From positions 58,454 to 122,453 of the forward strand of contig WGLV01000050.1 in assembly GCA_016125385.1 (NCBI GenBank): DNA of 64,000 bases. The letters run 5' to 3'. The translations under genes were made by a program, and so were the position numbers. The notes beneath the pieces are model-generated. The model saw only the letters and a list, made by a program, of their open reading frames with translations. It ran no database searches and was not told the DNA's origin. Origin of the DNA: a bacterium. GTDB lineage: Bacteria > Hinthialibacterota > Hinthialibacteria > Hinthialibacterales > Hinthialibacteraceae. Numbering within the stretch: position 1 is the first letter of the stretch; each line of letters opens with the position of its first letter. This document shows, piece by piece, positions 1-3,699 of the stretch.

Positions 1-3000
1 GCTCCAATCCTGTAAACGCGCGGAAATTCGAACGGGCAGTCCGTTCAGGGCGATTTCCGGATTCATTTCGGTGAAATGAATATGAGGCGGGATCATACGA
101 TGACGCAACGCGAGGATGGTTTTAACCAAACCCGCCAGCCCCGCCGCCGCTTCAAGATGGCCGAGATTGGTCTTGACCGAACCAAGCGTCAGAGGACGAT
201 CCTGTGGTCGGTTTTCAGCAAATACACCGCTCAGGGCCTTCATTTCGACAGGATCGCCCAGGAAAGTCCCGGTACCGTGCGCTTCCAGATAAGAAACCTG
301 ATCGGGAGAAACACCCGCGTCATGCATTGCCTGCCGGATGACTTCCATCTGCGCGGCGGGATTGGGCGCGGTCAGGCCGTTGCTGCGGCCATCCTGATTG
401 ATGGCGGAGCCGCGAATGACGGCCAGAACGCGATCGCCCTGCTTGAGCGCGGCGCTGAGGCGTTTGAGGACGACCACGGCGCAGCCCTCGCCGCGTACGT
501 ATCCATTCGCCGCGCGATCGAACGTCTTACAACGTCCATCGGGAGAGAGCATGCCCGCCCGGGCGAACGCAATGCTGAGTTCAGGCGACAGTAACAGGTT
601 GACGCCCGCCGCGAGGGCGAGCTCACACTCGCGGCGACGCAAATTCTGACAGGCGAGATGCACGGCGGTCAGCGATGAAGAACACGCCGTGTTGACCGCC
701 AGCGAAGGTCCGCGCAGATCGTAAAAATATGACAGCCGCCCGGCTGACACCGACGTGGACGAGCCCGTGCCGAAATAGGCGTGAAGGAATTCTTCTTCAG
801 ACGCCTTGACCTGAAGCGTTTCGTAATCGTGTGAAAAAACGCCGGTGAATACGCCCGTCGCGGAACCCGTCAACGTTCGAGGATCGATCCCGGCGTCCTC
901 CAGCGCATGCCAGCTGACTTCCATTAGCAGACGTTGCTGCGGGTCCATCGATTCCGCCTCACGAGGTGAAATCTGAAAGAACCCCGGGTCGAATTCATCG
1001 ACGCGGTCGAGCAGGCCGGCGAATTCGATTCCCGGGACGGACGCGGGATCGACGCCATAGTCCGCCAGATTCCATCGCGAATCAGGCACGCGCGTCACCG
1101 CGTCACGTCCTTCCGCCAGCAGCGACCAGAACGATTCGTCATCAACCGCGCCGCCGGGAAAACGAAACGCCATCCCGATCACCGCGATGGGGTCGTTCGA
1201 AACGGATTCCCGATCTTCCTCTTCATCAGGCGCGGCGGTTTTGTTCAACAACGAGAGCGTATTTAGAGCGAGTTGAGCGGTTTCGTTTTTCGGCGCGGAG
1301 CGTGTTTCAGTAAAATAGCGGGCAATGGCTTCAGGCGTTCCATACTCGAAGAAAAACGAAGATTCGAGCTCGGCGCCCATGCTTTTCCCAAGCATGAACT
1401 TCAATTCCATCAGATCGAGCGAATCGAGTCCCATTTCACGAAGCGAGCGCTGAAATCCATAGCCGCTTTTTCCGCGCGCGCCCAACAAAGATTGAATGCA
1501 GGTTTCAACCGATTCGCGAGGCGTCTGATGCGAGCCTGAGGCGGCATTCCGAGTAACCGAGGTTGAGACCATTGAGCACGGCAGCGATTCAGCGCCGTAC
1601 TCAATCAACACGCCAAAACCATCGTTATCCGCGTCTTCCGGACGATACCCGGACAGGGGTTTTACCAGCGCCGCGCCATGAGACGCATGAAAACGCAGGA
1701 TGGGATCAACGGGCAAGCCATCCGGATTTTTCCGGCGGATATATTCTTCCATCGTCTCCGCGCCGGATGATACGTAATCACGGCAGCGGGTCACGCCGAC
1801 CAGACGCTCCAGCCCCGGATGGAGAACATGCCACGTCATCACAAATTCGAGCAGACGATCGCCAAAGCCCTTGTCCTGCATTTCAGGCAGAACGTTCATG
1901 CCCAACAGCTGGAGGGTTCGCCCATCGTCATCATGAAGATCGAGAGCCTGATGGAAGGTTATGCCGTCCAATTTGGCGGGGTCGGCGATTCGCTGGGTGT
2001 ACACCGCTCCAGCGACCACACCGCCTGTCTCAATGACGAACTGGCCTTCAGGATACCGATTGAGACGGCGGCGAAGTTCGTTCTCATCAACTCGAAGCGG
2101 CGCCGCCCAGCAGCGTGTTTCCAATTGAAGAAGAGCAGGCAGATCGGCAAGCCGGGCCTGACGAATACGCCAGGGTTTCGATTCGAGCCAGTTCAGGGTG
2201 ATCCGGGTAAAAGGAAAAGCGCGCGGGTAGCGCTTGATATATTCACGCCGAGGAAACAGACCCGCCTCAGCCAGGCTGGTTAAAAACACGTGAGACTCAA
2301 CCAGATACTGACGCGAAAAAGCGTGATACGCGTCGAAATGAAGGTTTTCGCAATGGTCCAGATAGTCGAAGACGGTTCGTGGATCGAGACTATGCACTTC
2401 GAGCAGCACCAATCCGTGCCGTTCGGTAATTTCACTCCATCGTTCGAAATGTTCGACCAGACTCTGGATCATCACCGGCGCGGGAATCTCATCTCCAGAT
2501 GGCGCCACATACACGCCTTCAGTGGGGATGCGGCGGCGCTCTTCGGCTTCACCTGCGCGCAACGGTTCAATATAAGGGCGATCGTGATCGAGGAAGGAAC
2601 GAATATGCAGGACGGCGGCGGGATCGGAAACCCCGAGAGCCTTAAGATCGTCAAGCAATTCACGAGGCGCGCCAATATCGCCTTTCACAGTGAGATGAGG
2701 AATACCACGCAGCGTTTTCGCGGTTGCAGCCAGGGCGCGCTCGTTAAAATCAATACCGATCATCGTCACCGGGCGCGAAGCCAGTTCCCGGCCCCGGCGT
2801 GTACGATCGCGAATCACCTGATAGACGCGTTTGAGCAGGCTGCCGTCGCCTGATCCCATGTCGGCGACGTAATCCGGCTGTTCCTCCAGCGGAAGGCGGT
2901 TAAAAATCGCTTCAACGATTTCGTCCACGTCCGAGAAAAATTTTTCATGCTGAAAACCGCTGCCCACCACATTCAGCGTTCGATCAACATGCGTTTCATG

Positions 3001-3699
3001 TCCATCCGAATCGCGCTCGAAAACCGATTGCGCGTCGCCGAACAGCAGATCGCTCATCCTCATCAACATGGGACGATAAGACAACGCCGTCGCTGAAATG
3101 GGGGAACGCTCCACGATAAAACGTCCCAGCGGAGTCAGTTCGATGACGCTATCGCGCACGGCGCCCCATTGTTTGATATCAAAAAGATCGGCGATTTCAG
3201 CCTGAACGCGGGGCGAGAATGAATTAAGGCAAACACTCGTTTCCGTATCGGAAATCACACCGGCGGCATGCAGATGCATCAAGCAGGGCAGCAGCAGCAG
3301 ACCATCCAGCAGATCGGCGGTCAGAGGCGATGAAACGCCCCAGCGATCGCGGCACCGTTTCGACCATCCGCCGAGTTCGAGGTTGAATTCTCCACGGAAA
3401 TATTCAGCGAAAGGAAATTCGAGTAACTCGGCGGCGTTATCAGGTAGTTCTAGCCATTCCCTGCCCCGAATGGCGAGACTCAAACGGTTTTGTGAATCGA
3501 CATCCAACCAATCAAGCGACCGCAACATGCGAATGGCGGCGCGGAGATGACCGGAATTGGCGTTCAAACGCTGAGTGAGTTCATCGAAAGAAAGAGGGCG
3601 GCTTCGTTCAAGAAGCGAAAACAGCCCCCCGCGCTTGCACGCCGCTATCGTGGGGATCGTAACGTAACCGTGAATATAACGGTTCAGCGTCTCAAGCAT
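1..3699 (-). CDS. Type I polyketide synthase, N-terminal part: adaptor/AprA-like methyltransferase, GNAT-like decarboxylase, ACP, KS (runs off left end)
   Basis: Hand translation of several segments in one minus frame from ATG 3699 (GAGG upstream): [27 protein letters not shown]...[127 protein letters not shown]. No stop seen before position 1. Confidence 0.95.

Follow-up and report, generated by a model that had tools for sequence, protein, structure and literature searches.

The first 3,699 nucleotides of the window, the whole 64,000-nucleotide stretch of DNA that was analyzed, encode the loading module and KS1, the first ketosynthase, of a giant assembly line that is a PKS-NRPS hybrid and is probably primed with isobutyryl. 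The type of loader is known, structurally and biochemically characterized, and widespread, and it brings no new mechanism; the unusual point is the host, which belongs to an uncultured phylum. It is an orphan cluster, intact and almost entirely recovered, and its phylum is represented solely by metagenomes. It carries a specific and testable prediction of the starter, isobutyryl formed via double C-methylation of malonyl-ACP, and offers a natural test case for the Thr/Ile rule of methylation extent in metal-dependent PKS methyltransferases.

Gene and Domain Organization

The coding region is a single open frame of 1,233 codons without a stop, which leaves the window at its left edge. It appears in a listing of open reading frames only if open-ended frames are allowed, and the frame that an earlier note on this DNA described as hidden from the ORF track is thus present. 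Leftward extension on contig C58 (47342-62152) yields a whole gene of 4,936 amino acids, free of stops, and neither a stop nor a frameshift, either of which the note held would speak against its reading, occurs along it. Residue 1 of the PKS pairs in the alignment with residue 1 of SxtA, after the 3-residue tag of the latter. Key residues were verified codon by codon, and motif strings were located in the translation. The motifs read from the DNA by the earlier note are all found there, namely, DMGSGDG (residues 280 to 286), GVTRC (635 to 639), FHASHG (670 to 675), YRP (685 to 687), and GLDSL (757 to 761), as are its His/His/Gln candidate metal ligands, in FLDHDR (369 to 374; H372) and AYHAFSRQ (457 to 464; H459 and Q464). 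The features are compiled in Table 1.

Table 1. Features of the loading module, the first ketosynthase, and the upstream genes (window coordinates)
Feature	Position	Strand	Residues and codon positions	Basis
N-terminal 1,233 codons of the 4,936-aa PKS gene	1..3699	-	ATG 3697-3699	Open frame and full contig gene
AprA_N domain (lid of the loading methyltransferase; first part of what used to be called the "adaptor region")	3502..3699	-	1-66	PF23526, E 2.8e-24
AprA-type winged helix (WH_AprA)	3034..3306	-	132-222; T204 (3088-3090)	PF23589, E 7.3e-18
Metal-/SAM-dependent C-methyltransferase core (Methyltransf_36)	2191..2997	-	235-503; SAM motif D280-G286; Y458; candidate metal ligands H372 (2584-2586), H459 (2323-2325), Q464 (2308-2310)	PF23525, E 2.3e-108
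Full-length GNAT-like decarboxylase domain	1591..2190	-	504-703; T637 (1789-1791), H671 (1687-1689), R686 (1642-1644)	Gapless to CurA GNAT 2ree; PF00583, 1.7e-05
Loading ACP	1315..1509	-	731-795; phosphopantetheine Ser760 (1420-1422) in GLDSL	PF00550, 3.3e-09
First ketosynthase	73..1194	-	836-1209; C1006 (682-684), H1141 (277-279), H1181 (157-159)	PF00109, 1.2e-95; PF02801, 4.3e-46
MbtH-like gene, 77 aa	4078..4311	-		PF03621, 2.2e-22; 378 bases upstream of PKS start; AGGAG before ATG
409-aa gene, no Pfam family above threshold	4393-5622	-		Profile search
Perfect sigma-70-type consensus (TTGACA, 17 nt, TATAAT) upstream of the 409-aa gene	5664..5692	-		12/12 matches

Pfam profiles and solved structures, with scores far outside the range of chance, bear out the proposed architecture: an AprA/CurA-family lid and methyltransferase are followed by a GNAT that has Thr/His/Arg, by an ACP, and by a KS bearing a Cys-His-His triad. 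The best match among solved structures is the SxtA MT-GNAT chain (7uci; E 3e-224, residues 1 to 702), with further matches to AprA MT1 (6b39; 6e-159), the CurA GNAT (2ree; ~8e-54 to 8e-55), and the GphF GNAT (6mfc; ~7e-50 to 5.8e-51). The methyltransferase core is full length, with profile positions 1 to 268 of 268 matched in PF23525. Among 120 homologues, column tallies show D280, G282, and G284 of the SAM motif in 119 each, H372 in 119, and Q464 in all 120; position 459 is more variable, with His in 73, Gln in 41, and Glu in 6. T204 occupies the position of Ile204 in SxtA and of a Thr in AprA according to the alignment and a codon check. In the alignment to AprA MT1, H372, H459, and Q464 pair with the ligand residues of AprA at an offset of 3, which fits the AprA metal ligands, presumably numbered H369, H456, and Q461.

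The ACP begins 27 residues past the GNAT, and a second methyltransferase is absent from residues 1 to 835. The acyltransferase of the following module, AT1, bears the motifs GHSVG and HAFH. Alignment of the methyltransferase with AprA MT1, and of the GNAT with CurA, SxtA, and GphF, shows the catalytic residues to be conserved; alignment to AprA, GphF, and CurA had been proposed beforehand. In the CurA GNAT, Thr355 and His389 are reported to be essential for decarboxylation (bioRxiv 10.1101/2025.03.07.642089). The features of the MT_L-GNAT-ACP loader family, i.e., the lid and winged helix, the SAM core, the His/His/Gln site, the GNAT residues, and the ACP together with a KS, all occur in this protein, and it is very likely a functional loader of this kind.

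Proposed Starter Unit

By analogy with work on AprA, GphF, and SxtA, malonate would be loaded onto Ser760 of the loading ACP by the AT of the module that follows, which is of the malonyl type. The loading methyltransferase, dependent on SAM and on a metal held by its candidate ligands, would then methylate the alpha carbon, most likely twice, and the GNAT-like domain, using T637, H671, and R686, would strip the carboxylate to leave isobutyryl-ACP. This starter would be accepted by C1006 of KS1, and module 1 (KS-AT-DH-cMT-ER-KR-ACP) would convert it to a 2,4-dimethylpentanoyl intermediate. Six further PKS modules and the NRPS modules on contig C58, more NRPS modules on contig C77, and a terminal thioesterase would complete the line.

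The earlier note had left the starter as propionyl or isobutyryl. The residue pattern favors isobutyryl, which is predicted here as the better-supported starter, with propionyl less likely, because T204/Y458/H459 matches the dimethylating AprA MT1 and ThiA and not the monomethylating SxtA (I/F/Q). An 11-residue segment of the loader likewise resembles its counterpart in AprA, unlike HFDAFQGFSQQ of SxtA. An eight-position pattern of T/H/Y/H/Q in the methyltransferase region and T/H/R in the GNAT is the same in the loader, in ThiA (P0024), and in the Corallococcus homologue of ThiA. The isobutyryl starter of ThiA, derived from doubly methylated malonate, is reported to be supported by feeding with methionine-methyl-13C and valine-d8 (PMC10100342). 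Only four proteins whose starters are known, namely, AprA, ThiA, SxtA, and CurA, anchor the rule for methylation extent.

The same kind of loader could instead add a single methyl group and provide propionyl-ACP, as SxtA does. The MT-GNAT of SxtA tops the solved structures over all 702 residues and, with 749 bits against 534 for AprA MT1, is the highest-scoring structure overall, and both starters were kept in play at the outset. The AprA score is, however, lowered by the degenerate GNAT of that protein, and at the positions at which SxtA differs from AprA MT1 (I204, F458, and Q459), the loader has the residues of AprA and ThiA. Exchange of the active-site Ile of SxtA for Thr, emulating AprA, is moreover reported to permit a second methylation (PMC10784701), and a propionyl starter is rated as rather unlikely. 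A vestigial methyltransferase, with the GNAT simply forming an acetyl starter by decarboxylation of malonyl-ACP in the manner of CurA or LynB1, would agree with the use of acetate by many GNAT loaders and with the reported shrinkage of the CurA-type methyltransferase region to a lid (PMC10127204). This reading is improbable for a protein in which the core is complete over the entire profile and neither the SAM motif nor any of the three candidate metal ligands is lost. Because the ACP follows so closely on the GNAT and there is no second methyltransferase, pivaloyl is not an expected starter.

Gene Cluster

In a hybrid PKS-NRPS cluster of >62 kb, the gene for the 4,936-amino-acid PKS comes first and is followed, on its own strand, by NRPS genes, in agreement with the hybrid nature that had been suggested. 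Contig C58 contains seven PKS extension modules in all and seven NRPS modules, of which six are complete and the last is severed by the contig end, and the ~62 kb of cluster coding sequence is stop-free. The rest of the cluster, up to a thioesterase, is probably located on contig C77, for a total of ~76 kb; the two contigs were joined because half-genes sit at both contig ends, and no exact overlap between these ends was found. Two downstream modules are missing a complete AT, so the integrity of the assembly line is not assured.

The adjacent MbtH gene claimed by the earlier note is real. Upstream of it lies the gene for a 409-amino-acid protein, whose matches in the protein atlas are nameless look-alikes only. 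The sigma-70-type sequence in front of this gene is a possible operon start, by its match to the consensus; the scan gave 2 such sites, and shuffled sequences lead one to expect 2.1. A search for riboswitches and known RNAs found none between mbtH and the PKS gene and gave one subthreshold snoRNA-like match elsewhere in the searched stretch. A hairpin after the 409-amino-acid gene is visible by eye, and the terminator scan raised no flag there.

Host and Distribution

Candidatus Hinthialibacterota (OLB16) is the native phylum of the contig. GyrA is encoded on the same contig, ~17 kb from the PKS start, and shows 85% identity to that of Ca. Hinthialibacter antarcticus, 86% to the nearest genus, 76 to 82% within the family, 66 to 71% within the order, and 57 to 60% within the class. 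A foreign origin of the cluster, through a misbinned or chimeric contig, or its decay to a silent relic would be in line with the draft state of the genome (77 contigs), the severing of the cluster by a contig end, the rarity of the loader within the phylum (1 of 35 genomes), and the two modules without a complete AT. The native-type GyrA with its stepwise fall in identity from genus to class, the GC content of the cluster (56.3%, compared to 56.6% for the genome), and the ~62 kb of coding sequence without a stop make such an origin or decay highly improbable, in favor of a native cluster.

PKS or NRPS genes are found in 17 to 19 of the 35 genomes. A candidate orthologous cluster in the nearest genus (contig G002:C66) was rejected; it equals the present cluster in the numbers of PKS and C-domain matches but begins with C-A-PCP-KS, and its proteins are 29 to 51% identical to those of the present cluster over the best aligned segments. 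The lineage had been described beforehand as not known for such chemistry. This holds insofar as the phylum is uncultured and a literature search found no papers on polyketides of Hinthialibacterota, but about half of the genomes carry PKS or NRPS genes, and the loader is widespread elsewhere.

Across many phyla, 736 sequence clusters match the loader at an E value of ≤1e-30. The closest relative is ~50% identical, as are the top matches among characterized clusters; a close match to any of the latter, which would have argued against novelty, was not found. Residues 1 to ~3280 are collinear, with 40 to 44% identity, with proteins of ~3,100 to 3,400 amino acids that have the same order of loader and module 1. 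In a FastTree phylogeny of 119 loaders, the present loader groups with proteins from metagenomes and with a protein from one gammaproteobacterial MAG. The KS-AT of module 1 shows at best 53% identity to KS-ATs from its own phylum and 42 to 56% over the best segments to those of cyanobacteria, acidobacteria, and Chloroflexi. As regards the donor, the GC content gives no signal, and this KS-AT is equally distant from its own phylum and from other phyla. A tentative view is that Hinthialibacterota, a phylum without a recorded natural product, may be a source of giant hybrid PKS-NRPS lines that has been overlooked, that the product of the ~76-kb line may be a new lipopeptide, primed with isobutyryl and heavily C-methylated, and that the cassette of loader and module 1 may have been gained horizontally from a pool of cyanobacteria, myxobacteria, and gammaproteobacteria and then fused to a further module.

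Comparison with Known Loading Modules

The closest parallel in organization is ThiA, the PKS that opens the thiamyxin cluster of Myxococcaceae MCy9487 (PMC10100342), together with its homologue from Corallococcus terminator. These proteins share the order MT_L-GNAT-ACP-KS-AT-DH-cMT-...-KR-ACP and also head a hybrid PKS-NRPS line, with 49 to 51% identity over the loader and ~44% over residues 1 to 2593. Module 1 of ThiA has no ER, whereas an ER is present here. The thiamyxins of the ThiA line are thiazole-rich peptides, in contrast to the seven PKS extension modules of the present cluster, in which a general domain scan not aimed at heterocyclization or oxidase domains detected none.

The marks of the GphF/ThiA subtype, a complete methyltransferase, a catalytic GNAT, and an ACP, fused to a KS-AT module that contains a cMT, and a dimethylase-type site, are all present in the sequence, with GphF compared by its GNAT only. 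The GNAT of GphF from the gephyronic acid pathway of myxobacteria (6mfc/6mfd) matches that of the present loader, with Ser/Thr, His, and Arg conserved, and has Ser in place of T637. The MT-GNAT-ACP loader of GphF is said to produce isobutyryl from dimethylmalonyl-ACP (PMC10100342; bioRxiv 10.1101/2025.03.07.642089).

SxtA from saxitoxin biosynthesis (7uci/7ucl) is collinear over 702 residues and about half identical, with an intact GNAT. The next domain in SxtA is of the aminotransferase class (AONS); in the present protein, the ACP is followed by a KS, and no match to an aminotransferase family is found. The SxtA subtype (MT-GNAT-ACP-AONS, propionyl) was rejected on these grounds and by T204/Y458/H459, and nothing in the cluster suggests a saxitoxin-like product.

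AprA of apratoxin A biosynthesis (6b39 and related structures) has a homologous lid, winged helix, and metal-dependent MT1, and the equivalent of T204 and the YH...Q motif are common to both. AprA is described as MT1-pseudoGNAT-MT2-ACP, producing pivaloyl (PMC13564409). The AprA subtype, with its truncated, His-less GNAT and second methyltransferase, is ruled out by the full-length GNAT with H671 and the lack of an MT2 in the present loader, to which the GNAT region of AprA aligns poorly. CurA of curacin A biosynthesis (2ree/2ref) shares the Thr, His, and Arg residues in a GNAT that aligns without gaps, but its methyltransferase region is reduced and its starter is acetyl, whereas the present loader has a complete methyltransferase core.

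The loading module and its gene

Window positions 1 to 3699 (minus strand) encode a well-formed loading module of a widespread family that is already known. The module stands at the head of an orphan hybrid cluster from an uncultured phylum, Candidatus Hinthialibacterota, and shows no new mechanism. One uninterrupted frame of 1233 codons occupies these positions; its ATG lies at 3697 to 3699, and it is reported only with open-ended frames permitted because it leaves the window at the left edge. Followed leftwards along the contig (C58, WGLV01000050.1), of which the window covers 58454 to 122453, the frame is completed as a polyketide synthase (PKS) gene of 4936 amino acids, gene A, and the stop or frameshift considered in the earlier note does not appear. 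All motifs described in that note are found in the frame by string location, and the key residues of the gene A N terminus were verified codon by codon (see the table).

The proposed AprA/CurA-type order of methyltransferase (MT), GNAT, ACP, and ketosynthase (KS) is borne out by Pfam domains and by matches to solved structures. Among the latter, the didomain of SxtA (MT-GNAT, 7uci/7ucl) scores best, with an E value of 3e-224 and a collinear alignment over residues 1 to 702. AprA MT1 (6b39) follows with an E value of 6e-159 and aligns poorly in its degenerate GNAT region. H372, H459, and Q464 are candidate metal ligands; they align at an offset of 3 with AprA residues H369, H456, and Q461, taken here as the metal ligands of AprA. 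The Pfam family covering the core of the metal-dependent loading C-methyltransferase (MT_L), PF23525, is titled "AprA MT2-like domain," yet here it spans the region matching the PDB chains of AprA Methyltransferase 1 and the SxtA MT, a title that can mislead annotation. The GNAT domains of CurA (2ree; E 8e-54 to 8e-55, gapless) and GphF (6mfc; E 7e-50 to 6e-51) are likewise homologous, the comparison with GphF being confined to this domain. The GNAT triad is conserved, with T637, H671, and R686 opposite Thr, His, and Arg of CurA in the 2ree alignment. A passage of a preprint states that decarboxylation by CurA requires Thr355 and His389 (bioRxiv 10.1101/2025.03.07.642089).

Features of the loader, its cluster, and the upstream region
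Feature	Position	Strand	Evidence or content
AprA_N	residues 1-66		Pfam E 2.8e-24
WH_AprA	residues 132-222		Pfam E 7.3e-18
Methyltransf_36 (PF23525, MT_L core)	residues 235-503		Pfam E 2.3e-108
SAM motif DMGSGDG	residues 280-286		motif string
FLDHDR	residues 369-374		motif string
AYHAFSRQ	residues 457-464		motif string
GNAT (Acetyltransf_1)	residues 522-633		Pfam E 1.7e-05
GVTRC	residues 635-639		motif string
FHASHG	residues 670-675		motif string
YRP	residues 685-687		motif string
PP-binding	residues 731-795		Pfam E 3.3e-09
GLDSL	residues 757-761		motif string
KS N- and C-terminal halves	residues 836-1209		Pfam E 1.2e-95 and 4.3e-46
KS catalytic residues	C1006, H1141, H1181
Gene A	4936 aa	-	MT_L-GNAT-ACP / KS-AT-DH-cMT-ER-KR-ACP / KS-(no AT)-cMT-KR-ACP
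Gene B	2220 aa	-	KS-AT-DH-cMT-KR-ACP
Gene C	3155 aa	-	KS-(truncated AT)-DH-ER-KR-ACP / KS-AT-ACP
Gene D	1800 aa	-	KS-AT-DH-KR-ACP
Gene E	2222 aa	-	C-A-PCP-C-A-PCP
Gene F	2165 aa	-	C-A-PCP-C-A-PCP
Gene G	1924 aa	-	KS-AT-cMT-KR-ACP
Gene H	1585 aa	-	C-A-PCP-C-like
Gene I	cut by C58 contig end	-	C-A...
C77 high end	C77:36542-49662 (L107:6543-19662)	-	open-ended PCP tail, NRPS 1567 aa + 1585 aa, C-PCP-TE 815 aa, type II thioesterase 251 aa
Spacer frame, TTG start	window 3736-3996	-	86 codons; no family match
MbtH-like gene	window 4078-4311	-	E 2.2e-22; AGGAG ahead of ATG; same strand as PKS
GC-rich hairpin, then TTTT	window 4351-4381	-	seen by eye; terminator scan negative
Sigma-70 consensus	window 5664-5692	-	12/12 match; upstream of 409-aa gene

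Organization of the cluster

The domain map of C58:1-62152, drawn from Pfam and seed searches, places genes A to I on the minus strand. The NRPS genes E, F, H, and I share strand and contig with the PKS genes, in agreement with the hybrid PKS-NRPS line suggested earlier. The high end of C77, a second contig of the genome, probably supplies the rest of the cluster, an assembly gap that falls within a single C-A-PCP gene separating it from C58. Gene I split by this gap and a whole cluster of ∼76 kb would be the simplest reading; the two contig ends do not overlap, so the join counts as inferred.

Although the line is otherwise of the cis-AT type, a working AT is missing from two of its modules. 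In gene A, module 3 (residues 3689 to 4130; L004:2464-3789) carries ∼290 residues of no recognised family at the AT position, and in gene C, module 1 (residues 431 to 860; L003:6963-8252) retains only ∼95 AT residues that lack GHSxG. The surroundings showed no discrete AT gene.

The adjacent MbtH of the earlier note is matched at the Pfam level. MbtH-like proteins are partners of adenylation domains, so the gene is in keeping with the NRPS part of the assembly line. It is preceded by a 409-amino-acid gene of no known family, with the hairpin lying between the two. The 86-codon frame inside the 378-base mbtH-PKS spacer may not be a gene, and no known RNA families were found in this spacer.

Host lineage and distribution

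C58 also encodes GyrA, ∼17 kb from the PKS start. This protein shares 85% identity with the one that NCBI names as GyrA for Candidatus Hinthialibacter antarcticus, and its similarity declines with taxonomic distance (86% identity in the nearest genus, 76 to 82% within the family, 66 to 71% within the order, and 57 to 60% within the class), which argues against a mis-binned contig. KS-AT identities are equal inside the phylum (up to 53%) and outside it (42 to 56% over best segments), and GC contents of cluster (56.3%) and genome (56.6%) are equal as well. The loader tree (FastTree, midpoint rooted, 119 of 120 rows, one row with >200 gaps removed) groups the gene A loader with metagenome proteins and one gammaproteobacterial MAG, with supports of 0.97 for its sister and 0.98 for the eight-member clade.

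Among 35 Hinthialibacterota genomes, the source genome included, PF23525 is found in the source genome only (and in 0 of 14 control genomes), KAsynt_C_assoc (PKS) in 17, and Condensation (NRPS) in 19. A 703-residue loader search of 40 relatives matched the MT part in none; nine gave weak matches (≤31 bits), most of them between the loader's GNAT region and unrelated ORFs ∼530 amino acids long. Large PKS and/or NRPS genes occur in about half of the phylum's genomes, as in G002 (C66:65789-144816), G013 (C32/C37/C91), G021 (C8), and G023 (C3). The ∼80-kb hybrid of G002, from the nearest genus, is not an orthologous cluster and has an unrelated architecture. The loader thus has a patchy distribution, occurring in one genome of a phylum that otherwise often carries such megasynthases. 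No discussion of the phylum's PKS/NRPS genes was found in the limited library searched, and the main text of the paper naming the phylum (PMC9324843) does not mention polyketide, nonribosomal, secondary metabolite, or biosynthetic gene cluster. The earlier remark that the lineage was not known for such chemistry thus holds for the papers found but has to be qualified by these gene counts and by the wide occurrence of the loader type.

Against 1.84 billion cluster representatives, the loader matches 1812 proteins at E≤1e-3, of which 1306 reach E≤1e-10 and 736 reach E≤1e-30. When long proteins were scored, 234 of the 1292 candidates matched, the top non-self ones at 48 to 50% identity; named matches belong to cyanobacteria, myxobacteria, gammaproteobacteria, Aminicenantes, Paenibacillus, Flavobacterium, Mycoavidus, Anaerolineae, and others. 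Residues 1 to ∼3280 of gene A align in one piece, at 40 to 44% identity, with proteins of ∼3100 to 3400 amino acids, and 7 of 11 proteins examined share the domain order of loader and module 1, including the ER. Loader and first module therefore form a recurring cassette, joined here to a third module. The nearest non-self representative, P0122 (51% identical; 1272 amino acids), is a stand-alone MT_L-GNAT-ACP-AT without KS, and P0111 (2865 amino acids) comes from a eukaryotic protein set; both show wide recombination of the loader. None of the characterised clusters resembles this one closely, and its product is therefore likely new; the enzyme type itself is not.

Starter unit and extent of methylation

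By analogy with characterised loaders, AT1 would load malonate onto the loading ACP, MT_L would methylate the malonyl alpha carbon, GNAT would decarboxylate the methylated product, and KS1 would take the resulting acyl group as starter. Module 1 (cMT, DH, ER, and KR) would then give 2,4-dimethylpentanoyl-ACP as the first intermediate. AT1 of gene A carries GHSVG and HAFH, presumably a malonyl-type signature.

The extent of methylation was judged at three positions separating monomethylating SxtA from dimethylating AprA MT1. SxtA has I204, F458, and Q459, whereas the gene A loader has T204, Y458, and H459, the same residues as AprA MT1 at the equivalent positions. Exchange of the SxtA active-site Ile for Thr, emulating AprA, is described in part of PMC10784701 (citing Lao et al. 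2022) as reducing bulk and making a second methylation possible. Across the first 820 residues of 120 listed loader proteins, the gene A loader included, position 204 is T in 66, V in 36, A in 9, I in 6, L in 1, M in 1, and a gap in 1; position 459 is H in 73, Q in 41, and E in 6.

The earlier note left the starter as propionyl or isobutyryl. The three residues and the pattern shared with ThiA of the thiamyxin cluster make isobutyryl the favored candidate, with moderate confidence; propionyl appears unlikely on the same residues, and acetyl very improbable. A pivaloyl starter, which AprA loading logic gives according to a section of PMC13564409, is not expected because no second methyltransferase precedes the loading ACP in gene A. 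The cluster makes a good target for genome mining and offers a natural test of the rule on methylation extent. The pattern T204/H372/Y458/H459/Q464/T637/H671/R686 is common to 19 of the 120 aligned proteins, including a Corallococcus terminator homologue (P0020) and ThiA (P0024), which agrees with the gene A loader at all eight active-site positions; for thiamyxin, feeding with methionine-methyl-13C and valine-d8, as given in part of PMC10100342, supports an isobutyryl starter from doubly methylated malonate.
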